Below are positions 50,273 to 64,000 of a DNA stretch of 64,000 bases, one piece after another. Both the position numbers and the translations under genes were made by a program. The stretch is from Verrucomicrobiia bacterium (lineage in GTDB: Bacteria > Verrucomicrobiota > Verrucomicrobiia > Limisphaerales > UBA1319). The stretch is taken from positions 5,376,001 through 5,440,000 of the forward strand of contig OY760937.1 in NCBI GenBank assembly GCA_963664225.1. Direction: 5' to 3'. The notes under the pieces were generated by a model. That model was not told the origin of the DNA. It saw only the letters and a list, made by a program, of their open reading frames with translations, and ran no database searches. Within the stretch, counting starts at the first letter, position 1. Each line of letters begins with the position of its first letter.

Positions 50273-53203
50273 TTAAGGTTCATTGGGCAACAAAATGCGT
50301 TTTAAGAATCGACCTGTGTGGCTTTCCGGTGTCCTGGCCACGGTTTCCGGAGTGCCCGCCACCAGGATTCGTCCGCCACCGCTGCCGCCTTCGGGACCCA
50401 AATCGATGAGCCAATCGGCGCTCTTGATCACGTCCAGATTATGTTCGATCACCAGTAGAGTATTGCCTGCCGCGCGCAATTTGAAAAGCACTTCCAGCAG
50501 TTTGGCGACGTCGTGGAAATGCAGGCCGGTGGTCGGTTCGTCGAGAATGTAGAGGGTTCGCCCCGTGGATCTGCGGCTGAGTTCGGAGGCCAGTTTGATG
50601 CGTTGGGCTTCGCCACCGCTGAGGGTGGTGGCAGACTGCCCAAGGCCAATGTAACCCAACCCCACTTCGGCCAGGGTCATGCAGATATCGTGAAGTGCCG
50701 GGACGGCGCGGAAAAAATCGACCGCTTCATCCACAGTCAGCGCGAGGACATCGGCGATATTTTTCCCTTTGTAAGAAATTTCGAGCGTCTCGCGGTTGTA
50801 ACGCTGACCGCCGCAGTTTTCGCAGATGACATAGACCGGGGGCAGAAAGTGCATTTCAATTTTGAGCAGGCCATCGCCCTGGCATTTTTCACAACGGCCC
50901 CCTTTGACGTTAAAACTAAACCGGCTTGCCCCGAAACCCCGGATTTTCGCGGAGGGCAATTTTGCGAAGAGGTCGCGAATGTGGTTGAACATTCCCGTGT
51001 AGGTGGCGGGATTGCTGCGCGGGGTGCGGCCGATGGGGGCCTGGTCGATGACGATGACTTTGTCCAGGAGGTCCGCGCCACGGATTTCGCGATGCGCCCC
51101 GGGTTTTTCCTTCGACCCATGCAACAGCCGGAACAAGGCCCGGCGCAGGATGTCATCGACCAGGGTGCTTTTGCCCGAACCGCTGACGCCGGTGACGCAG
51201 GTGAACGCTCCCAGCGGAATCCGCGCATCGATGTTGCGCAGGTTATTCTCGGTTGCGCCCAGGATTTCCAGCCAGCCTCGTTCCGGCATGGGTTTGATTC
51301 GTTTTTTTGGAACGGGGATTGATAGTTCGTTGCGCAAATACCGGGCGGTCAGGGAACGGGGGTTGGCCATGACTTCGGTCAGAGTGCCCGATGCCACGAG
51401 TTCGCCGCCGCGCACACCGGCACCGGGGCCCAGGTCGATGACATAATCGGCGTTGCGAATGGTGTCCTCGTCGTGCTCCACCACCAGGACGGAGTTGCCC
51501 AGGTCGCGCAGGGATTTGAGCACTGCGAGAAGCCGGTCGTTGTCCCGCTGATGCAAACCGATGCTGGGTTCGTCCAGAATATAGAGCACGCCGACAAGGC
51601 CCGCACCGATCTGGGTGGCCAGGCGGATGCGCTGGGCCTCGCCGCCGCTCAAGGTGCCGCTTTCGCGGTTCAAGGTCAGGTAGCCCAAACCGACATTGGT
51701 GAGGAATTTGAGTCTGGAGCGAATTTCCGCAATGATTTCCCCGGCGACTTTTTGCTCGAAATCGGTCAGCTTGAGCCCCCCGAAGAATTGAACGGCCTGC
51801 TCCACAGATAGGGCGCAGGCGTCCATGATGGATAACCCCGGGGCCTTGCGCATCGTGCGGATGTTTTCGGGAATATAATCACCGGCTTCATTGCCGCCGA
51901 GAGTCACGGCGAGCACTTCGGGCTTGAGACGTGTGCCGCCGCAACTGTCGCACGGGGTGGGACTCATGAAATTCTTGAGCCGGTTCCGTGTGAATTCGCT
52001 GTCCGTCTCCTCGTAGAGCCGTTGCAGGTTTGGCAACACGCCTTCGAAAGGCCGGGTGGTTTTACTCATTTTACCCGCCCGCCAGAAATGAAAGTCGATT
52101 TCCGTTTCCCCGGTGCCGTGCATCAGGATTTGTTTGAAATCGGATGGAAGATCCCTGTAAGGGACCTCGAGGCTTTGATTGAAATGCTGGGCGACTCCGC
52201 GCAGGAGGCTTTTGTAATAGACGATCATGCGCTTGCCGCCCCGGCGCCAGGGCAGAATGGCGCCGCCGTCCAGGGATTTGGCGGGGTCGGGCACCACCAT
52301 CGATTCATCGAATACCAGCTTTTGGCCCAGCCCATGACAAACGGAACAGGCGCCGTGGGGTGAATTGAAGGAGAAATGTTTGGGAGTCAGTGGCTCATAA
52401 CTCAGGCCCGTGCCAGGGCTGTAATAGCGGTTGGAGAAGAAATCCTCCGTCCAGGGCGTTTCTGAAGTTGCTCCCGTCGGCTGGCTCAAAACCAGAAGCC
52501 TGCCTTCCCCCCATTTAAGGGCGGTCTCCACCGAATCGCTCAGGCGCACTCGGATTTTATCATCGACGACCAGTCGATCGACAATGGCCTGAATATTGTG
52601 GGTCTGCCTGGGGTCGATCTTGATCCGCAGGTTGGTGCCCAATTCGTGAAAAGCGTCGTCCACGCGAACGCGGACGAAGCCTTCGCGCGCAAGGCGCTCC
52701 AAGACGTCTCGGAATTCGCCTTTTTGGTCGCGAATGACCGGCGCCAGAACCATAACCCTTGTTTTTTGGGGAAGGGTCAGAATTTTATCGACGATTTCGC
52801 TGGTGGACTGGCGGCTGATCGGCAAGCCGGTCACCGGGCAATGGCGGTGACCCACATGGGCATAGAGGAGACGCAGGTAATCGAAAATTTCAGTTGTGGT
52901 GGCAATGATCGAACGGGGATTGGCACCGGCGCTTCGTTGTTCAATGGCGATGGTGGGGGAGAGGCCTTCGATGTAGTCAACATCCGGCTTTTCGAGCTGG
53001 TCCAGGAATTGCCGGGCATAGGCAGAGAGCGATTCGACATACTTGCGCTGGCCCTCTGCGAACAAAGTGTCGAAGGCCAATGAGGACTTGCCCGAACCGC
53101 TCAAGCCCGTGACGACCACCAGCTTATCGCGGGGGATGGTCAGGGTCAGGTTCTTTAGATTGTGCTGACGCGCGCCAACGATCCGAATAAATTCCTTAGC
53201 CAT
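50273..53203 (-). CDS. uvrA: Excinuclease ABC subunit A
   Basis: GARQHNLKN, two Walker A motifs ([18 protein letters not shown]), LSGGEAQRI twice, CxxC fingers. Confidence 0.98.
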
Positions 53204-53371
53204 AGATGCGAATTTTCATTCGCCTTCAAAAGGATGATTGAATCACAAACCGGAGCGGATGCAAAGATTCTTCGCAAACCCGGTTGACGAGCGCCCGCGA
53301 TCCGCATCGGTTTATTTTGACAACCACGGGTTCTTTTGTTTATTATATACCCCGTAAACGAACAACGATTG

Positions 53372-54310
53372 ATGAAAACTATATTGCGCGGTTTCGTCAC
53401 GGCCTTGTCGATGCTGACAATGGGATTTGGATTTAATGCGTTTGCAGTCCAGCGAGGCGCTCAGAATAATGTTTCCGAAGCTGGCAACTATTCCCTGGTG
53501 TATTCGTTGGACATTCCAAACACACCCAACTACGAAAACGGGGTCACTTACGATATCGACAACCGAACCCACCTGCCTGCCTTCAGCCGGATCGCATACT
53601 ATCTGGAATTGCAGGAAGGAACCAACGCACTTAATTTTATCTGGGTCTCGATGGACGCCTTTACGACGAATATTAACAAGATCGGCGTTCCAACGGTCAC
53701 CAGCGGCGCATACTTCCGGCAGTCCGTAGCCAGAATGAATGTTCAGTCGAGTGTCTCCGGGATTGTAAACGGGACCAATCTATCCGGTGGCAACATTGAG
53801 TTTTGGCCTCAAAACTATTCCAGGCCAAATACTGGCAATGTGCCTAATGCCAGTGACGCCGCTTATGACTGGGGCGATAGTCCGTATGCAGGCAATTATG
53901 GTTCCATGCAGGTGCATAATCATGATGCAAAGCAGGTGCTCTTTGCATTCAATCGATGGGGTGGATATGGTGGAATAGCCGATCTGGGGATTGGAAACAG
54001 GGCCGCGTTCGATGTGGACTGGACTTTCGCGACAAACGCCTCCAATTACGTGATCAAATCACTTCAAGTCTATGTGCTTTCCAATGTGAAACCATTTAAA
54101 ATAATCGCACAGGGCTTCCAGCCTGCCGGGAACTTCAGTGTGACTTGCGAGGCGCAATCCGGCACGGCCTATTCACTGTGGCGCAAGCTCGACATTGGGG
54201 TTCCGACATGGACCGAGGTCGCTGCAACAACAGCCTTATCGAATACGGTGACGCTTGTGGATGCTCACGCCACCAATGTTTCAAGCCTTTATCAAGTCAG
54301 AACCCCCTGA
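53372..54310 (+). CDS. Exported protein: one uncharacterised ~200-aa domain plus C-terminal domain
   Basis: Signal peptide; the domain is repeated in the next gene. Confidence 0.75.
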   Translation: MKTILRGFVTALSMLTMGFGFNAFAVQRGAQNNVSEAGNYSLVYSLDIPNTPNYENGVTYDIDNRTHLPAFSRIAYYLELQEGTNALNFIWVSMDAFTTNINKIGVPTVTSGAYFRQSVARMNVQSSVSGIVNGTNLSGGNIEFWPQNYSRPNTGNVPNASDAAYDWGDSPYAGNYGSMQVHNHDAKQVLFAFNRWGGYGGIADLGIGNRAAFDVDWTFATNASNYVIKSLQVYVLSNVKPFKIIAQGFQPAGNFSVTCEAQSGTAYSLWRKLDIGVPTWTEVAATTALSNTVTLVDAHATNVSSLYQVRTP

Positions 54311-54482
54311 TCACAGGCCGACCGACAATAACAACTCTAACACGCCGATTTTCGTTCGGCGTTTTATATTGATCGCAACACCAAAAGAAATGTAACTCCG
54401 TTCGTGAAAGCCCTCTGACTATTCCATTTTCATCTGGTTAAGTAATTGCAGATTGTCTCATTCAAACCGGCGACTCTATTCT

Positions 54483-56318
54483 ATGCGGAAGTTTCTATTT
54501 CTTTTTCCTGTCATTTGTTTAGTGCTGGCTGCACTCCAAGCGGACTTGTCCGCATCAGCCCCCCCGATTCGAATCATGCCCTTGGGCGATTCGATTACTG
54601 AAGGATGGCCAGTGCCCGGCGGTTACAGGGCGCCTCTTTATCGTTTTCTAACCAATGCGGGGTATAATGTCGATTTCGTTGGAACCCTTAAGAATAATAA
54701 TTCATCGGATCTTCCGGATCCCGATCATGAAGGCCACTATGGATGGCGCATGGATATTCTTGATGGAATCATCGATGCCTCCCTGGCGCAGGTGGACGAT
54801 CCGGATGTCATCCTTCTTCTCATTGGCACCAACGATTACTCGCAGAACAGCCAGCTTGCGAACATCGTTCAACGAATGGAAAACCTGGTTGTAAAAATCG
54901 CCACCAACCGTCCTTACGCGAAGATTATCCTCGCCAACCTTCTGGTTCGCGGCGAGCCCTACAACACCAAAATCGAAACCACCTTTAATCCTTATCTTCC
55001 CGCCATCGCACAGCGACAACAAGCCCTGGGCCGCGAAGTCTATTTCGACGACATCAGGAGCGCTGTGCCGCTGGAGGATTTTCCAGATCAGTTGCATCCT
55101 GACGCGACGGGTTATGCCAAAATGGCCACGAACTGGTTTGGCGTCATCACCAATCTCTTCGAACCCGAAGGCAGCAAATCTTTGCCAGGGATTGCCCGCG
55201 TCCTGGGGGCCGGATACGCCAACGTCAAAGTGGTGTTTAGCAAACCCATTGCGGATGAATCGGCAATTCCAGAGCATTTCAGTTTCAGCGGCGGTTTATC
55301 GATTACCCGTGCCGTGCTGGACCCGACCAAGCGGGAGGTCACCCTTACCACATCGCTGCAACAACCATTCACCACTTACTCTGTCACGGTAAATGGCGTC
55401 CACGACCGGACTGCCGCCCAATTGGGAATCATTTCCAACTCCACCGCTTCCTTCATATCTGTTCCTGACCCTGGCGCGAGCAGCAAGGTTGCAGAGGCTT
55501 CCGATTATAAATTGGTTTACTCTTTGGACATTCCGGATATGCCGAATTATGAGCATGGCCTGGTTTATACGCTCGATTACCGCGCCAAGGTTTCCGGATT
55601 CAGCCGCATCGCCTATTATTTGGAACTGCAACCAACCAGCGGACCATTGAACTTCGTTTGGGTGTCGATGGACGCCTTTACGACAAACGTTGACAAGATC
55701 GGCGTGCCGACGGTCGGCAGCGGGGCTTATTTCCGGCAGTCGATCACCAACATGAATGTTCAGTCCAGTGTCACAGGCGTCGTTGGTGGAACAAACCTTT
55801 CCGGCGGCAACATTGAGTTCTGGCCTGACGATTATTCCATGCTCAATTCAGCCAATGTGCCTAATGCCAGTGACGGTCTCGATGACTGGGGTGACAGCCC
55901 GTATCCAGGCAATTACGGCTCAATGCAGGTGCATAACCATGATGCAAAGCAGGTGATCTTCGCTTTCAACGGCTGGGGCGGGTGGGGTGGAGTGGCCGAT
56001 CTTGGCATTGGCAACATGCCGTATGGCGAGCCGGACTGGACCTTCGCCGCAAACGCAACCAATTACGTGATTAAAACCCTCCAGATATTTGTAATGCCCA
56101 TTCCTCACATCACGCGTGGTTACTTTGAAGCGCCTTCCCAATTTTCGCTCAACTGGGACGCGCAACCCGGCGCAAGGTACTCCGTTTTCAAGAATCTGAC
56201 GCTCGATTCATCAAACTGGACCAGGATAGGGGGGCTAACCGCGACCTCAAACGTGGCGGTTTTCATCGATTCGGATGTGACCAATTCAGAGAGTTATTAT
56301 CACATCTCAAGTCCGTAA
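54483..56318 (+). CDS. SGNH/GDSL esterase (CE3-like) plus Ig-like domain, the same uncharacterised domain and a C-terminal domain
   Basis: IMPLGDSIT, DFVG, HEGHYG, IGTND, DQLHPD; VVFSKP...V.LTT Ig-like segment. Confidence 0.85.
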   Translation: MRKFLFLFPVICLVLAALQADLSASAPPIRIMPLGDSITEGWPVPGGYRAPLYRFLTNAGYNVDFVGTLKNNNSSDLPDPDHEGHYGWRMDILDGIIDASLAQVDDPDVILLLIGTNDYSQNSQLANIVQRMENLVVKIATNRPYAKIILANLLVRGEPYNTKIETTFNPYLPAIAQRQQALGREVYFDDIRSAVPLEDFPDQLHPDATGYAKMATNWFGVITNLFEPEGSKSLPGIARVLGAGYANVKVVFSKPIADESAIPEHFSFSGGLSITRAVLDPTKREVTLTTSLQQPFTTYSVTVNGVHDRTAAQLGIISNSTASFISVPDPGASSKVAEASDYKLVYSLDIPDMPNYEHGLVYTLDYRAKVSGFSRIAYYLELQPTSGPLNFVWVSMDAFTTNVDKIGVPTVGSGAYFRQSITNMNVQSSVTGVVGGTNLSGGNIEFWPDDYSMLNSANVPNASDGLDDWGDSPYPGNYGSMQVHNHDAKQVIFAFNGWGGWGGVADLGIGNMPYGEPDWTFAANATNYVIKTLQIFVMPIPHITRGYFEAPSQFSLNWDAQPGARYSVFKNLTLDSSNWTRIGGLTATSNVAVFIDSDVTNSESYYHISSP

Positions 56319-56486: not shown

Positions 56487-57752
56487 CTATTTGGAGGCAG
56501 AGATGGTGATGGGATCCGAAACGGTTCGTGATCCATAGCGATCGACGGCCACGGCTTTGAGTTCATGGATCCCCTTGGGAATGTGCTTCCAAACAATGGT
56601 GTAGGGGTTTTGTGTGGCCAGGCCCAGGAAACGGCTTCCCGTGTAAAAACCGACGTATCGTATGTCACCGTCCGCATCGCTCGCGTCAGCCTTGATGGTG
56701 ACGGATGACTGCGCCGGGAAATCAGCGCCATTTTTCGGCGAGGTTATGCTGACCTGCGGTGCGAGGTTGGTGACTGAAAACATGGCTATGGCTGTGGAGC
56801 TTGTTCCGGCAACATCGAAAGCACGGGCAACGATCCAATGTTTGCCGGGGGGCACATTGTTCCAGGTGAGGGTAAAAGGACTATTGGTGAAAACACCAAG
56901 ACGGCGTCCATCTCCATGCACTTCGATTCTGGTGATCGCATCATCCGGATCGGATGCGGTTCCTTTGATTTCCACATTCGCCGGGAGCGAAAAGACCGAA
57001 TGATTTACAGGGCTGAGCAAGGTCACCACGGGCGGTTCGTTCGTTACCGTTATTTCGATTGGCGCGGAAAGGGCGGATTTTCCGAAGGAATCCGTGGCTC
57101 GCGCAAAAAGTGTGTGTTTTCCTGCAGGCGCATTGGTCCAGGTGATGGTGAATGGACTGTTTGTGGATTTGCCGATCCAATCGTCGCCAGCATAAAAGCT
57201 CACCTTCTGCACTGTGTCATCGGCATCCGATGTCCCGGCGATGAGCTGGATATTGGCTGGCATGGTGAACATCGCCCCGTTGGTGGGACTGGTCAGTGAG
57301 ACGGTTGGCGGCAGGTCATTGAAGATGTCGTCCACGAGTGTCACTTTAGCGGTTTTATGAGTGGCCAACGTGTATAAAGCATTGGTCTTCAATGTTAATA
57401 TCACTGTTTTGTTACCCCGCTTTTTCAGATCAACCAGAGGCTGAATGACAACATCCGACGCAAGAAAACCATCTGGGATCGTGACTGAATCCGTGATCTT
57501 CACATAGTCGCCGCCGTTCGAGGCGGATCCACTTATGTCGTAGCTGACCACAAGGTCGCCGTTGGTGGCACTGGCACGGATTATGGTAAAGGCGGCCGAG
57601 CTGGACCCCACCAGCGCGATGGGATCAGTAGCGCGGATTTCCAGTCCGGGGCCGCTGGTTGAAACAGGAAAATCGGCAAAGAGGGCTTGTGCATTGAGAA
57701 AGACCGAAGCCAGCATCAAACTGACCTTGATATTAAAGTGCTTAATGTGCAT
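56487..57752 (-). CDS. Exported Calx-beta plus three bacterial Ig-like repeat protein
   Basis: FTIIR....L.V.Y..SGSA.NG.DY (Calx-beta); three P.V.L.SP.NG..F..P...ASD.D....V.FY...P(F/Y)T..W...P.G.H...A.A.D units. Confidence 0.8.
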   Translation of the reverse strand: MHIKHFNIKVSLMLASVFLNAQALFADFPVSTSGPGLEIRATDPIALVGSSSAAFTIIRASATNGDLVVSYDISGSASNGGDYVKITDSVTIPDGFLASDVVIQPLVDLKKRGNKTVILTLKTNALYTLATHKTAKVTLVDDIFNDLPPTVSLTSPTNGAMFTMPANIQLIAGTSDADDTVQKVSFYAGDDWIGKSTNSPFTITWTNAPAGKHTLFARATDSFGKSALSAPIEITVTNEPPVVTLLSPVNHSVFSLPANVEIKGTASDPDDAITRIEVHGDGRRLGVFTNSPFTLTWNNVPPGKHWIVARAFDVAGTSSTAIAMFSVTNLAPQVSITSPKNGADFPAQSSVTIKADASDADGDIRYVGFYTGSRFLGLATQNPYTIVWKHIPKGIHELKAVAVDRYGSRTVSDPITISASK

Positions 57753-59330: not shown

Positions 59331-60216
59331 ACATCAGGGCTGCGATGCAAATTGGGAACGTGGCCAGCATGCCGACTCCGCAGAGCAAGACCCCGGCAAT
59401 AGAAACGAGTCCGCTGAGGATGAGCAAGATGAAGACTTGACCCCAATGGCGGGAGACGGTTTTGCGACTTAATTCCATTGCGGACCAAAAGTCCAGGCCC
59501 TTGTCGATGATCAAGGGAATACTGAACAGCCAGCAAGTGGCCAGATAAACGGCGGGAATGATCCCGATCACGGCCAGCAAAATGCCAAAAGGCAGGAACA
59601 TGGGGCGATGGAGAATCATTATTGCCCCCACGGCGATGACAAAAAGAAAGGCGCTAAGAAAGGTCAGAACTCCGATCACGATCTGGCCGAGCATCAGAGG
59701 CAGAAATGCCTTGCTAAAACCATCGAAAAGGTCCGAGATTGTGGATTCCTGACCGCGAACGCGTTTAAGCATCAGCATATAAAGACCGCCGTAGAGCGGC
59801 CCGGAAATGGCCATGTTGATCAGCGCGCCCAAAAACGGTATCAAGCCGCATCCAAAACTGACGAGAAAGAGGAGCAGGGTGGCTCCAACGAACAGTCCCA
59901 CGTTGGCCTGGAAGAGTCTCCACCCGCGTCCGATGCACACCGGGGCGTCGATGGAGTAATCGTTATCCAATGGGGCGTTTGGGGTAAAGGTGCTCTCTGG
60001 AGTTGGCCCGGGGGGGACCAAGGGCGGAAAGGTGGGTGCGGGACCGCCAAAGTCAGTGGCGAATTCGGGAAGCTCGCCCAAGGGAAGCCATGCATCGGTT
60101 CCTTCGAATTTGGCAATGGTCTGAGCATTGGCGCGGCCCTCTTTGATCCATTGACGAATGAGATCCGCCGAAACCGGTCCATACTCCTTCTGATCCGCCC
60201 CAATGATCTTGTACAT
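59284..60216 (-). CDS. GYF_2 (DUF4339) domain membrane protein
   Basis: MYKIIGADQKEYGPVS...WI.EGR.....EG...W.PL..LPEF, Pro-rich linker, multi-TM C-terminal region. Confidence 0.85.
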   Translation of the reverse strand: MYKIIGADQKEYGPVSADLIRQWIKEGRANAQTIAKFEGTDAWLPLGELPEFATDFGGPAPTFPPLVPPGPTPESTFTPNAPLDNDYSIDAPVCIGRGWRLFQANVGLFVGATLLLFLVSFGCGLIPFLGALINMAISGPLYGGLYMLMLKRVRGQESTISDLFDGFSKAFLPLMLGQIVIGVLTFLSAFLFVIAVGAIMILHRPMFLPFGILLAVIGIIPAVYLATCWLFSIPLIIDKGLDFWSAMELSRKTVSRHWGQVFILLILSGLVSIAGVLLCGVGMLATFPICIAALMYGYEEIFNPGTIKEP

Positions 60217-60536
60217 AAGACCACTATGCGACAATTCAGGCCGTTTGAAAAGCCCTATGTAGGATATGCCAACAGGTTTGTTGTCCGACTTGGAAAACGG
60301 GGTGTTTTCGTGCATGAACCAGCCGCAACCAAGTCGAATGCCGTTCGCCATTAACCCGGATGAAAGGGCCGCGTGACAAAACTCCATTTCCATTCCAAAA
60401 TACTGGCGTAACCGTTCAGGATATGCTATATGTTAGGAGTGCCGTGCCTGGGAACACAATGCGATTTTGGATTGGGTGCCTGTTTGGGCTTTTCCATTGA
60501 ATTGCATGATTCCCCTCCCACCGTGTCTTCATTTTT

Positions 60537-61445
60537 ATGGACTCTTCAATAAACCCCTCAAAAGTTTCCGCTTCCTCGCCGGAAATTGAGATCCAATCCC
60601 CTTCAAACACCTTGTGGCGTTCTTTCCGAACTTACTTTGCCAGCGAAATCGCCTGGATGGGAGCCGCAAAGGCCGCGGTGGTTTGCTTGATGGTTGGAGC
60701 GTTGGTGCTGCTCTTTGGCAGTTCCTGCGGAACCGTCCAGCGAACCGTGATCGTCCCCGCTGAAATAGAAGGAGCCACGTATGCCGGCAACAAGGCGTGC
60801 ATGGAATGCCACACCAATATCTGCCGGGTTTTTCCCATGAACGCCCATGCGCGTGTTGACTCGGACAAAACCCAGATGCCCGGCCAGACTGGTTGCGAAT
60901 CCTGTCACGGTCCAGCCAGTAAACATATTGCCGTCGGCGGAGGGCGCGGCAAATTCATCATCAATCCGCGGAAGGATCCCGAAGCCTGTTTTCAGTGCCA
61001 TCTGGATGTCCAGGGCCAGTTTCACCTGCCTCAGCGTCATCCTGTGCTGGAGGGGCGGATGAACTGCGCGCAGTGCCACGATCCGCATGGAAAGGATGTA
61101 TTCAAGCCTTCCAATGGTCTCGCGATGGGGCGCCTTAATGAATCCTGCGCACAATGTCATCGGGACCAGACGCGTCCCTTTGTCTATGAGCATCCCGCAC
61201 TGCGTGAGGGTTGTGTGACCTGTCATTCGCCGCACGGATCGATAAACTCGAAAATGTTGGTCGAGCGGGATGTGAATTTATGCCTTAAGTGCCATGTGCA
61301 GATGGCGGGGGGCGGTGTGGGGCCGGGGCAGGTATATATTGGGAAGATTGAGCATTCGGCCTATGTCCGTCAGGGCACATGCTGGAGTGCGGGCTGTCAC
61401 ACAGCCGTTCACGGGTCCAACATGAGCCGCCTGCTTGTCTATTAA
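60537..61445 (+). CDS. Multiheme c-type cytochrome, MtrA/DmsE-like, 8 heme motifs, probable lipoprotein
   Basis: CMECH, CESCH, CFQCH, CAQCH, CAQCH, CVTCH, CLKCH and CWSAGCH; GPASKH, PFVYEHP and HGSN as in the MtrA family; LLFGSSC lipobox-like. Confidence 0.88.
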   Translation: MDSSINPSKVSASSPEIEIQSPSNTLWRSFRTYFASEIAWMGAAKAAVVCLMVGALVLLFGSSCGTVQRTVIVPAEIEGATYAGNKACMECHTNICRVFPMNAHARVDSDKTQMPGQTGCESCHGPASKHIAVGGGRGKFIINPRKDPEACFQCHLDVQGQFHLPQRHPVLEGRMNCAQCHDPHGKDVFKPSNGLAMGRLNESCAQCHRDQTRPFVYEHPALREGCVTCHSPHGSINSKMLVERDVNLCLKCHVQMAGGGVGPGQVYIGKIEHSAYVRQGTCWSAGCHTAVHGSNMSRLLVY

Positions 61446-61454
61446 GGAGCCACC

Positions 61455-63908
61455 ATGAAATCATACTGGATAAACCATCCTTTGGCGCGGATTGCCCTCG
61501 TGGAACTGGCTCTGGCAACAACTGGATTCGCGGCCGACACGCCCGCAGTGGATGTTTCAAAGCTCCCTCCGGCAGCGACACGCAAGGTCGATTATGAAAA
61601 GGACATTAAACCGATCCTGGAGACCGCTTGTTTCCTGTGCCATGGCCCTGAAAGTCCCAAGAGTCGCTTCAATCTGACCACGCAGGAAACAGCCTTGAAG
61701 GGTGGACGGCGCGGGGTGGATATTGTGCCAAAACAAAGCGCGCAAAGCCCCCTCGTCCACTATATATCCGGCGTCATTGAGGATTTGCACATGCCCCCGG
61801 GCAATGCCAAAGCCCTGACGCCTGGCGAGATCGGGCTCCTGCGTGCGTGGATCGATCAGGGACCAGAGTGGTCAAAAGCAGAACCCCCGGGACCGCCCAT
61901 GACATTTTCGGCCTCTCCACAGCTCCGGTGGATTGCTGTCAGCGGTGACGAGGCGAAGTTTCGGGAGCATTACTGGGTCAATGACGGCTGGGGCGGCGGG
62001 CTCAGGGAATTTGAACTGGTCGGGAAGAAATCCCCACACGACACCGTCCGGGTCGAGGGCCGCATCCTGCCTGCGGAACACGATTACAAAACCTCCGTAT
62101 CGTATGCCCGCCAGGACCTGGGTTATGCGCGATTTGACTGGGAGCAGTATCGCAAATATTACGATGATTCGGGCGATTATTATCCGGGCCTGCACATCAT
62201 TCCCTACCGGCTGGACCAGGATCTCCATCTCGACATGGGTAAGGCAAAGTTTGAACTCGGATTAAACAAGCCCGACTGGCCCAGGATTAAACTGGGTTAC
62301 GATTATCAATATAAAGAAGGGAACAAAACAAGCCTGGCCTGGGGATCTGTTGGCGCGCGGCCTCCCGAATACAATGCCCTCGATAGTCGCAAAATCTATC
62401 CCTCCTTTAAGTACGTGGACGAACACGCCCACTTGATTCATTTGGATATCGATCATGATTCCCCTGTCGTCCGCCTCACGGACAATTTTCAGGCCGAATT
62501 TTACACACAGGATGACCAGCTTCACGAGGTCACCTATGCCAGCGCGGTTTCCGGGAATGCGGAACGGTTTGCCGTCGTCAAGGAACGCTATGAGCATTTC
62601 CAGGCGGCCAATGCCTTTCGACTCGAAAAACAGGTCAACTCCTGGCTGTATCTCTCCGCGGGTTATCTCTTCAGCACATTGGACGGGGATAGCATGTTCA
62701 ACGCATCGACATTGCTCTCACCGGTCTCCACGGCAGGCTATTCAGGCGATGACAAATTCTGGCTGAGCCACCAGATCCTGGTCGATCAGCAAACCCACAC
62801 TTTCAATGTCAACACACTCCTTGGTCCCTGGGACGGACTGAATATTTCAGCGGGCATTCAAAACGAATGGATGTCGCAGCATGGATTTGGCGATGTCAGC
62901 CTTAACGAGGGTGATCCAACTAATCCATTGACCTTTATTGAGCAACCTGCAATACTGCGTTCTGACATGGACCGTGTCACCACCGACGAACAGGTCGGCA
63001 TGCGTTACACTAAAATTCCATACACGGTAATCTATGCGGAAGGCCGCTTCCAGCAGGAGGCCATGGGACAGGCGGATGAAATGCATGAAACGCCCTCTTT
63101 GCTGGGACATGACTTCCTCCAAAACACTGATGTGTCCGGGGACTTGAAGGAATACCGGACGGGCTTCGATCTTTCGCCCTGGCGGAAGATCAGCCTCAAC
63201 GCCAGTATTCGTCACCGCGATAAACAGACGGATTACGACCATTTGACGCGCCTGCAGCGCACAGATGCCGGGGCATTTCCCTATGATGGATATCCGGCGT
63301 TTATCAAATCGCGTAATGTTAATACAGACGAATTTCAAACCAAGCTCGCGTACCGGCCTTTCCCCTGGTGGAAGGCGACCCTGACATATCAATTGGTCTC
63401 CACGGATTACAGGACAGAAACGGCCAGTGTATCCGGCGATATAACACCCGGCGGCCCGGCGACCGCCGCAACTTTTGATTCCGGCATCTATTCCATCAAC
63501 AACACGTTCACGCCGTGGCGGCGTCTGAGTATTTCGGGAACCTTTTCCTACCGGGACGGACGCACGAAGACCGCGTACAACGGAATTGCCGGCGTAGTTC
63601 CTTACGAGGGGGACGTTTTCAGTGTGATCGCGAGCTCCACTTATGTCCTCACCGAAAAAACAGATTTGGACGCCAGCTATTCCTTTTCCCGCGCCGATTA
63701 CCGTCAGAATAACGCCGCAAGTGGATTGCCTCTGGGCATCAATTATGACTGGCACAGCGTGATGGCGGGAGTGCGTCGTGAGATCAGCAAGAACATGACT
63801 GCGCGCCTGCAATACGGTTTCTTTCGATATGCAGAACCGACAAGTGGTAACGCGGCCAATTACGATGCTCACGCGATCTTTGCGACATTGCTCGTGCGTT
63901 TGCCGTGA
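61455..63908 (+). CDS. Outer-membrane beta-barrel (MtrB/PioB-like) fused to an N-terminal Planctomycete-type monoheme cytochrome c
   Basis: AAGGAG RBS; signal peptide; VDYEKDIKPILETACFLCHG...LKGG..G..IVP.....SPL......MPP...L...EI..LRAWIDQG; then about 670 aa of alternating aromatic beta-strands. Confidence 0.78.
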   Translation: MKSYWINHPLARIALVELALATTGFAADTPAVDVSKLPPAATRKVDYEKDIKPILETACFLCHGPESPKSRFNLTTQETALKGGRRGVDIVPKQSAQSPLVHYISGVIEDLHMPPGNAKALTPGEIGLLRAWIDQGPEWSKAEPPGPPMTFSASPQLRWIAVSGDEAKFREHYWVNDGWGGGLREFELVGKKSPHDTVRVEGRILPAEHDYKTSVSYARQDLGYARFDWEQYRKYYDDSGDYYPGLHIIPYRLDQDLHLDMGKAKFELGLNKPDWPRIKLGYDYQYKEGNKTSLAWGSVGARPPEYNALDSRKIYPSFKYVDEHAHLIHLDIDHDSPVVRLTDNFQAEFYTQDDQLHEVTYASAVSGNAERFAVVKERYEHFQAANAFRLEKQVNSWLYLSAGYLFSTLDGDSMFNASTLLSPVSTAGYSGDDKFWLSHQILVDQQTHTFNVNTLLGPWDGLNISAGIQNEWMSQHGFGDVSLNEGDPTNPLTFIEQPAILRSDMDRVTTDEQVGMRYTKIPYTVIYAEGRFQQEAMGQADEMHETPSLLGHDFLQNTDVSGDLKEYRTGFDLSPWRKISLNASIRHRDKQTDYDHLTRLQRTDAGAFPYDGYPAFIKSRNVNTDEFQTKLAYRPFPWWKATLTYQLVSTDYRTETASVSGDITPGGPATAATFDSGIYSINNTFTPWRRLSISGTFSYRDGRTKTAYNGIAGVVPYEGDVFSVIASSTYVLTEKTDLDASYSFSRADYRQNNAASGLPLGINYDWHSVMAGVRREISKNMTARLQYGFFRYAEPTSGNAANYDAHAIFATLLVRLP

Positions 63909-63930
63909 AACGCTTTTGCACAACCCGTTT

Positions 63931-63964
63931 GACCCTTCGGACGGGAAGGTCTGTTTTATTCTTT
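63931..63964 (+). terminator. Possible intrinsic terminator
   Basis: GACC(C)TTC-ggacgg-GAAGGTC imperfect stem followed by a T-rich tract. Confidence 0.35.
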
Positions 63965-64000
63965 TGTGATGCTCAGTTTATCCATCATCTCGTAAAGCGT

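Follow-up and report, generated by a model that had tools for sequence, protein, structure and literature searches.

Porin-cytochrome conduits allow Gram-negative bacteria to exchange electrons with iron minerals, humic matter and electrodes. Such conduits have been described in two designs, the one-heme Cyc2 porins and the heme-free barrels placed around ten-heme wires, and in MtrAB (6R2Q), PioAB and MtoAB a multiheme cytochrome gene lies directly before the gene for a very large outer-membrane barrel. Here, we analyze a 64,000-nucleotide (nt) stretch of DNA from a soil-type Verrucomicrobium (hereafter the window, whose numbering is used for all feature positions), in which the same gene order is found, with a gene for an eight-heme c-type cytochrome followed by one for a porin that carries a one-heme cytochrome domain of its own. 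The family of this fused porin joins both described designs. It is a real and conserved variant of the porin-cytochrome conduit and, as far as we searched, one that had not been described.

Several described systems share part of this arrangement; statements on published work refer to the accessible portions of the papers cited. Cyc2 (Keffer et al., 2021; PMC8406198) is also a single polypeptide in which a signal peptide is followed by a one-heme domain and then by a C-terminal barrel, but its barrel is predicted to have 16 strands and it has no multiheme partner, whereas the barrel region of the fused porin spans ∼660 amino acids (aa) and is accompanied by an eight-heme gene in 18 of 18 loci. 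The heme domain of the fused porin, which belongs to the PSCyt1 family, is a further difference from Cyc2. MtoD (PMC4412085) is likewise a small one-heme cytochrome of class-I type, encoded alongside a porin-cytochrome module (mtoAB) for which it is the proposed periplasmic link, but MtoD is a free, bis-His protein (+155 mV), unlike the fused heme, which is predicted to be His/Met-ligated, is of the PSCyt1 family and is joined to the barrel by a covalent tether. Another predicted porin-cytochrome fusion is GM18_3465 of Geobacter sp. M18 (Shi et al., 2014; PMC4245776), with ten heme motifs in extracellular loops rather than a single heme in a separate N-terminal domain; Verrucomicrobia are absent from the accessible part of that survey. 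Within the same phylum, He et al. (2017; PMC5615132) described clusters in which a large porin, with at least 20 predicted strands, adjoins a cytochrome with eight conserved heme sites, sometimes together with an extracellular multiheme cytochrome. The accessible text mentions neither a heme site in the porin nor a lipid anchor on the cytochrome; compared by description only, a second, heme-free cluster in the genome studied here fits that account, and some of the published clusters may be of the fused type. He et al. (2019) noted 'Cyc2 homologs' in some Verrucomicrobia genomes, which may include members of the fused family. In its accessible part, a November 2026 review of iron-oxidation proteins lists just two types, Cyc2 and the 26-strand PioB/MtoB, with no mention of Verrucomicrobia or Planctomycetes. 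We found no description of a fusion between a one-heme domain and a large barrel in the papers searched on porin-cytochromes, PSCyt1, Pedosphaera, or verrucomicrobial MtrA/MtrB, in agreement with a preliminary description of this DNA, made from the letters alone, whose author did not know the architecture as characterized.

In the open reading frame (ORF) listing, the fused porin is a single plus-strand ORF of 817 aa (61455..63908) with no internal stop, and it comprises, from N- to C-terminus, a probable signal peptide, the PSCyt1 one-heme domain, a short proline-rich linker and the ∼660-aa barrel region. A motif scan detected one CXXCH in the protein (CFLCH, aa 59-63). Its ATG, at 61455, lies just beyond the TAA at 61443-61445 that ends the upstream cytochrome ORF, and the two genes are one operon, whose gene order is the same in all 18 relatives' loci that could be evaluated. 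The single ORF with signal peptide and CFLCH...MPP monoheme domain, 9 nt downstream of a multiheme cytochrome gene, had been read correctly in the preliminary description; the proline-rich linker reported there is present as well, but is short (∼15 residues) and variable rather than a long stretch, its columns being gapped in many of the 116 fused rows of the family alignment. The features of the gene pair are as follows.

60537..61445, plus strand: eight-heme c-type cytochrome gene, MtrA/DmsE-like (longest ORF 302 aa)
60726..60728, plus strand: lipobox cysteine of the cytochrome (Cys64 of the 302-aa ORF, ...LLFGSSC/GT)
60798..61400, plus strand: eight heme motifs and eight invariant extra histidines of the cytochrome (motif positions 88, 120, 151, 177, 204, 226, 249, 282)
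61446..61454, plus strand: spacer of 9 nt from cytochrome stop to porin ATG, GGAGCCACC, with Shine-Dalgarno-like GGAG
61455..61532, plus strand: probable Sec signal peptide of the fused porin, aa 1-26, MKSYWINHPLARIALVELALATTGFA/AD (...TGFA/AD), read by eye
61587..61871, plus strand: PSCyt1 one-heme cytochrome c domain, aa 45-139, from the PF07635 match and ligand conservation
61629..61643, plus strand: heme motif CFLCH, within the PSCyt1 domain
61791..61799, plus strand: Met113-Pro-Pro motif, aa 113-115, within the PSCyt1 domain
61872..61916, plus strand: linker rich in Pro, Ala and Ser, aa 140-154, SKAEPPGPPMTFSAS, ∼15 residues
61917..63905, plus strand: large outer-membrane beta-barrel region, aa 155-817, from homologues, amphipathic segments, Atlas neighbours and co-linearity

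The chance that assembly or gene calling produced the fusion, by joining a small cytochrome gene to a porin gene, is practically nil, even though the genome does contain free-standing PSCyt1 cytochromes of the same length. Apart from the uninterrupted frame, contigs from two public runs of two studies (possibly the source data of the genome assembly) cover 60400-64000 unbroken, with 0 differences and no joints. A word-indexed protein search returned 1153 proteins at E≤1e-3, and all of the 120 matches listed, which came from NCBI, JGI, ENA and Logan, were fused proteins of 758-918 aa with PF07635 present; more than 100 sequence clusters have this architecture in common. Among 40 relatives' genomes, 18 contained the full-length fused form, all in the same order, and two more contained fragments. 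The RefSeq protein of the cultured Pedosphaera parvula Ellin514 (WP_007416123.1) is fused too, and is annotated only as 'c-type cytochrome domain-containing protein'; the cytochrome of that strain is WP_083809003.1. The fusion is thus present in contigs of public runs and in other genomes, the latter being where the preliminary description had proposed to look for it. When 300 genomes sampled evenly across the phylum were searched at E≤1e-40, the fused form was detected in only 1 and the heme-free form in 3. The family is therefore concentrated in one order, which by the names of the matches is most likely Pedosphaerales. One fused cluster was found outside the order, in a genome of another family (G076), and there too an eight-heme gene lies directly upstream, with eight canonical CXXCH motifs in its product. 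In that cluster, the porin gene is followed by a gene (L062 6077..6901, minus strand) whose product, a secreted protein of 274 aa, has one CXXCH and matches no Pfam family.

The heme domain itself is well defined, with a Pfam PSCyt1 (PF07635) match at aa 59-115 that scores 46.2 bits (E 7.2e-12), where the cut-off is 22. In the family alignment, Cys59, Cys62 and His63 are invariant among 116 fused homologues, Met113 is kept in 115 and Pro114 and Pro115 in all 116, and His102 is conserved in just 83. The conservation of His63 and Met113 indicates that His/Met ligation, which had been suggested from the window sequence before, is under selection, and points to a functional heme with these two ligands. 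Only three PSCyt1 domains were found in the genome, one in the fused porin and the others in two secreted proteins of 150 and 158 aa, both of which end exactly where the porin linker starts. Since the free 158-aa cytochrome is also 48% identical to the porin domain (E 3e-39), the fusion looks like a free periplasmic cytochrome that became joined to a barrel gene.

To follow the barrel separately from the heme domain, a barrel-only search was made of 1.84 billion representatives, which returned 815 clusters at E≤1e-3, comprising fused and heme-free forms. Among the full-length matches listed, fused proteins have ∼760-860 aa and one CXXCH near the N-terminus, and the heme-free proteins listed have ∼650-735 aa, no CXXCH, and a barrel that begins directly after its own signal peptide. 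In a Pfam scan, all 30 fused forms had PSCyt1, and none of the 32 heme-free forms matched a cytochrome family. In a FastTree analysis of barrel columns (148 rows), a single branch with support 99 divided the fused from the heme-free proteins, and the same split was obtained with a quick IQ-TREE run on 58 rows (SH-aLRT 91), from which four long-branch rows had been removed and in which 28 of the 116 fused rows, drawn at random, were used. The partner cytochromes (33 rows) were also split by cluster type on one branch (SH-aLRT 99), so barrel and wire have diverged together. The barrels are co-linear, with 649±14 residues in 197 fused rows and 644±11 in 54 heme-free rows. The fused type has a single loop, near aa 650-679, that is ∼7 residues longer. 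The family consists of two ancient sister types, fused and heme-free. It looks as if cytochrome and barrel were joined once, in the ancestor of the fused clade, and the fusion would be the derived state if the wider heme-free barrel superfamily is taken as the outgroup of these unrooted trees.

The genome from which the window was taken carries both types, with the heme-free cluster at a distance of 1.8 Mb.

L007 4865..9826 (G000:C1:3592864-3597825): heme-free porin-cytochrome cluster of the same genome, three genes

These genes encode a 573-aa cytochrome with nine CXXCH motifs, a 296-aa eight-heme paralogue with a lipobox, and a 758-aa barrel that is 27% identical to the window barrel and has a long low-complexity N-terminus rich in Ala, Pro, Lys and Glu. 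The nine-heme cytochrome matches PDB 6i5b_A (E 3e-17), which we take to be OcwA, the nine-heme surface reductase of Thermincola. The presence of this sister system in the same genome sharpens the question of what the fused heme may replace.

The partner of the fused porin was examined in the same manner. Homologues of the cytochrome have ∼264 aa and cover 76-94% of the 302-aa ORF without its first ∼40 residues, which places the probable start at Met41 (60657) and gives a protein of 262 aa. A motif scan found seven CXXCH and one CX4CH (CWSAGCH), for a total of eight hemes, and all of 93 homologues keep the eight heme motifs as well as eight further histidines; the lipobox cysteine is likewise retained by all 93 aligned sequences, within the consensus SC[S/G]T. 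From this pattern, we infer that the cytochrome is a bis-His, lipid-anchored wire. A profile of the 93 homologues matched PDB chain 6r2q_A with E 1.1e-40. We take 6R2Q to be the Shewanella baltica MtrCAB complex and chain A to be MtrA; the PDB file labels the chain 'Cystathionine beta-synthase', a label that misfits a 333-aa chain showing ten CXXCH in the alignment. Hemes 3-8 of the cytochrome align to the last six CXXCH of 6r2q_A (112 bits), and a weaker alignment (37 bits) pairs hemes 1-4 with the first four motifs of the chain; the wire is therefore two hemes shorter in its N-terminal half. The matches to the DmsE family (TIGR03508, NCBIfam; E 5.6e-45, 153.8 bits against a curated cut-off of 192.2) and to the GSU2203 family (E 1.8e-49) both fall below the cut-offs of these families, and the relationship to MtrA and DmsE is one of superfamily rather than of equivalog. 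The neighbouring multiheme cytochrome of the preliminary description is accordingly an MtrA/DmsE-type homologue, but one that differs from the cytochromes of MtrAB, PioAB and MtoAB in having eight hemes instead of ten, with CX4CH as the last motif, and, unlike those soluble cytochromes, in having an invariant lipoprotein cysteine.

No Pfam or NCBIfam family matched aa ∼155-817 of the fused porin at E≤0.1. A crude amphipathicity scan of the family alignment gave about 20 beta segments. For a homologue that is 52% identical, the ESM Atlas contains a model with a predicted TM score (pTM) of 0.73, whose structural neighbours over aa ∼130-823 are large outer-membrane barrels (TM 0.63-0.76). Further Atlas neighbours include a cluster auto-named MtrB/PioB and one that has PF11854, a model for MtrB and PioB, in 10% of its members. 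Mean-field direct coupling analysis of 253 sequences (effective number 216) was uninformative on strand pairing, since the top pairs fell in gappy loops and the best antiparallel ladder (8.18) was no better than the best parallel control (8.29). Taken together, aa ∼155-817 probably forms one large outer-membrane barrel.

The genes around the two types of porin were compared over up to ∼7 kb per side, at fused porins of 18 relatives, at heme-free porins of 17, and at the two clusters of this genome. Every ORF of at least 90 aa with a CXXCH was listed from its first start codon, so some ORFs are over-long, and several loci are cut by contig ends. The counts were as follows.

Eight-heme gene beside the porin: 18/18 evaluable fused loci (one cut by a contig end), in each case directly upstream; 18/18 heme-free loci
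Further cytochrome with at least three CXXCH: 0/19 fused loci
Nine-CXXCH cytochrome of 497-622 aa: 14/18 heme-free loci, the remaining four having other multiheme genes
Separate small class-I one-heme cytochrome c gene beside the porin: 6/18 heme-free loci (five PF00034/PF13442, one by motif only)

Genes for plastocyanin/azurin-family proteins, mostly joined to Big_7 Ig domains, were found beside 8 of 19 fused loci, and genes for Rieske proteins with a twin-arginine (Tat) signal beside three; one or the other was present at 10 of 19 fused loci (L021-L024, L031, L032 and L034-L037) versus 0 of 18 heme-free loci. In 10 of the 18 relatives, such a cupredoxin-Big_7 gene (206-895 aa) or Tat-Rieske gene directly follows the fused porin. 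Besides Big_7/Ig, these cupredoxins carry FG-GAP and BACON domains, and among ten cupredoxin domains five keep the C-x2-H-x4-M copper site, four have Gln for Met and one is without the site. A HAM1/RdgB-like gene (identified by eye) often comes next after these genes, which indicates that synteny is shared among the relatives' fused loci. Genes for NapC/NirT-type cytochromes of ∼495 aa were present in two heme-free loci, and the present genome encodes a related protein elsewhere.

L064 6566..8044 (G000:C1:5722565-5724043), minus strand: 492-aa NapC/NirT membrane cytochrome, with six CXXCH and one longer motif
L065 3593..9473 (G000:C1:1439592-1445472): locus of a 1235-aa cupredoxin

The 492-aa protein, which we take to be reminiscent of Geobacter ImcH, is 50% identical to the products of genes beside relatives' heme-free clusters. 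The 1235-aa protein is the genome's only cupredoxin and contains two Copper-bind (plastocyanin/azurin), three Big_7 and three CHRD domains; its gene is divergent to those for an extracytoplasmic-function (ECF) sigma factor, an anti-sigma-like protein and the free 150-aa PSCyt1 cytochrome. This gene set may encode soluble or surface partners of the fused porin.

We propose that this gene pair specifies a conduit for electrons across the outer membrane that resembles MtrAB, PioAB and MtoAB except in two respects. The wire would be an eight-heme, bis-His, lipid-anchored MtrA homologue inside the ∼660-residue barrel, as MtrB encloses MtrA, and the lipid anchor would fix the N-terminal end of the wire to the inner surface of the outer membrane. 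In even-stranded outer-membrane barrels both ends face the periplasm, so the N-terminus of this barrel would be periplasmic and would bear the His63/Met113 PSCyt1 heme on a ∼15-residue tether. Placed beside heme 1, the PSCyt1 domain could act as a stationary relay through which the wire exchanges electrons with soluble carriers of the periplasm, for which free PSCyt1 cytochromes and blue-copper proteins are candidates. The idea of a relay is suggested by the separate small cytochrome c genes at 6 of 18 heme-free sister loci and by the shortening of the wire in its periplasmic half, and MtoD offers a possible precedent. Electrons would enter from soluble outside donors, Fe(II) or reduced humic quinones, and pass to a high-potential aerobic chain. 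Inward flow is favored because a His/Met heme is usually of high potential, and because blue-copper and Rieske genes adjoin fused porins in relatives, as the cupredoxin-Big_7 gene of this genome adjoins one for a free PSCyt1 cytochrome; in general, His/Met class-I hemes are higher in potential than bis-His multiheme wires. It is also favored because the fused clusters have no surface multiheme cytochrome, as is the case in PioAB and MtoAB according to the accessible accounts (PMC4245776, PMC6344600). The domain make-up, the partner's homology to MtrA, the pairing, the conserved heme ligands, the split into two types and their different neighbours are direct results, and from these the enclosure of the wire by the barrel, the periplasmic position of the heme, the lipidation and the direction of flow are inferred. 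We consider hardware consisting of a conduit and a tethered relay heme to be probable, and hold the complete statement, in which this MtrAB-like conduit and its periplasmic relay heme carry electrons inward, more tentatively, at a little below the balance of probability.

A number of observations weigh against this proposal. Unlike the heme-free MtrB, PioB and MtoB, the barrel bears a one-heme domain and is not recognized by PF11854 or by NCBIfam: neither PF11854 nor TIGR03509 matched the protein at E≤0.1, and in a genome scan its PF11854 score was 9.9 bits (E 0.71). The PF11854 cut-off was exceeded by three of 62 relatives, two of which had been selected because they were previously flagged, and four more matched below it; the matched ranges were alike in six of the seven and shifted in one (P0211). 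PDB sequence searches with the family profile and with P0105 returned heme-domain matches only, and no MtrB. By sequence, the 'MtrB-like barrel' of the preliminary description has a weak link to MtrB/PioB, its bases being PF11854 in a few relatives, the Atlas neighbours and the identity of the partner. The eight hemes of the wire may be too few to cross the membrane, and the nine-heme cytochrome of the second cluster could serve both barrels. With regard to direction, we know of no measured potential for a PSCyt1 heme, and the cupredoxin-Big_7 proteins could, by their Ig-like domains, be surface proteins, which would fit outward flow. MtoD, the precedent for a relay, is bis-His (PMC4412085, accessible part). 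The window locus has no cupredoxin or Rieske gene, and downstream of its porin are a convergent sigma-54-type regulator and a kinase. The loci compared come from related genomes that share synteny, so their counts are not independent events. Finally, with this query only the heme-free form was detected in the same-genus genome G001 (93% complete), suggesting that the fused system is dispensable.

The most serious rival retains the same hardware and reverses the flow, so that the tethered heme would load the eight-heme wire from periplasmic carriers, with humic quinones, chelated Fe(III), or a surface blue-copper/Ig protein in place of MtrC as acceptors. Consistent with this idea, reduction of humic substances has been proposed for related verrucomicrobial clusters (He et al., 2017; PMC5615132, accessible part), the genome encodes the NapC/NirT cytochrome with seven motifs that is 50% identical to one beside heme-free clusters, and the cupredoxins beside fused porins have domains of surface type. 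However, a class-I His/Met heme, being usually of high potential, would be a poor entry point, a nine-heme OcwA-like cytochrome is present at 0 of 19 fused versus 14 of 18 heme-free loci, and, in the accessible portions of the literature, Mtr-type modules of two genes that lack a surface cytochrome are known as oxidizers (PMC4245776, PMC6344600). Outward flow thus appears rather unlikely, though it is an alternative to be taken seriously.

Two further readings give the barrel another role. The fused heme might sit in or at the barrel lumen and meet dissolved Fe2+, as in Cyc2, with the eight-heme lipoprotein as a periplasmic acceptor below the barrel. The domain order, signal peptide and single CXXCH are the same in Cyc2 (PMC8406198, accessible part), and a lipid anchor would keep the eight-heme protein on the inner surface of that membrane, below the barrel. 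This reading is improbable when set against the ∼660-aa barrel region, as compared with 16 strands in Cyc2, and against a partner that is homologous to the cytochrome threading MtrB. Moreover, heme-free sisters combine a co-linear barrel with the same eight-heme partner, so the role of the barrel needs no fused heme, and Pfam and NCBIfam scans, which had no Cyc2 model, gave no sequence link to Cyc2. Alternatively, there may be no conduit, the barrel being a transport porin or an anchor and the cytochromes serving a periplasmic redox task such as detoxification or sensing. That the barrel matches no curated family, that the fused form was not seen in the same-genus relative, and that the case is known from sequence alone are in line with this explanation, but the partner's homology to MtrA, the strict pairing and co-divergence of the two genes, and sister clusters in which surface-type nine-heme and quinol-side NapC/NirT cytochromes complete an envelope-spanning set make it slightly more improbable again. 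Relative to these alternatives, we retain the conduit with a tethered relay heme and inward flow as our working proposal.

Other features of the window and of the second locus are recorded here.

63934..63949, plus strand: terminator-like hairpin, 26 nt past the porin stop codon (consensus match only)
50273..53203, minus strand: UvrA-like gene of the window
L007 1526..4240, plus strand: UvrA-like gene near the heme-free cluster
53336..54310 and 54453..56318, plus strand: tandem genes for secreted proteins with a common C-terminal domain of ∼290 aa that belongs to no Pfam family
56487..57752, minus strand: secreted protein of 421 aa whose N-terminus is weakly Calx-beta-like, with three Big_7 Ig domains

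A sigma-54 promoter pattern was absent upstream of the eight-heme gene, the whole window containing 92 matches versus 88.7 expected, and Rfam gave no match at E≤1 in 59900-64000. The UvrA-like ABC ATPases (976 and 904 aa, identified by eye) are encoded a few kb from both porin-cytochrome clusters, which is probably a coincidence. The second tandem protein (54453..56318) has a GDSL lipase domain ahead of the shared domain. The Ig domains of the 421-aa protein are of the kind joined to relatives' cupredoxins, and it has no copper domain.

The fused family is common in one verrucomicrobial order, where it was found in 18 of 40 genomes, yet marker-gene tools would not flag it. A tethered relay heme offers a testable answer to how a short, membrane-anchored wire reaches the periplasm, and a cultured carrier, Pedosphaera parvula Ellin514, is available. 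Having both sister types in one genome offers a natural experiment on what decides which way electrons flow. A bolder version of our proposal, which we regard as unlikely, is that the fused type constitutes a third class of conduit, a self-contained nine-heme uptake module equivalent to MtoAB with MtoD attached, while its heme-free sister runs the opposite way. Pedosphaerales are abundant in soil and freshwater, and are regarded as sugar-eating heterotrophs. If the bolder version is true, these bacteria would draw electrons from dissolved Fe(II) or reduced humics, with blue-copper proteins and oxygen as recipients, and one cell would own separate inward and outward wires.

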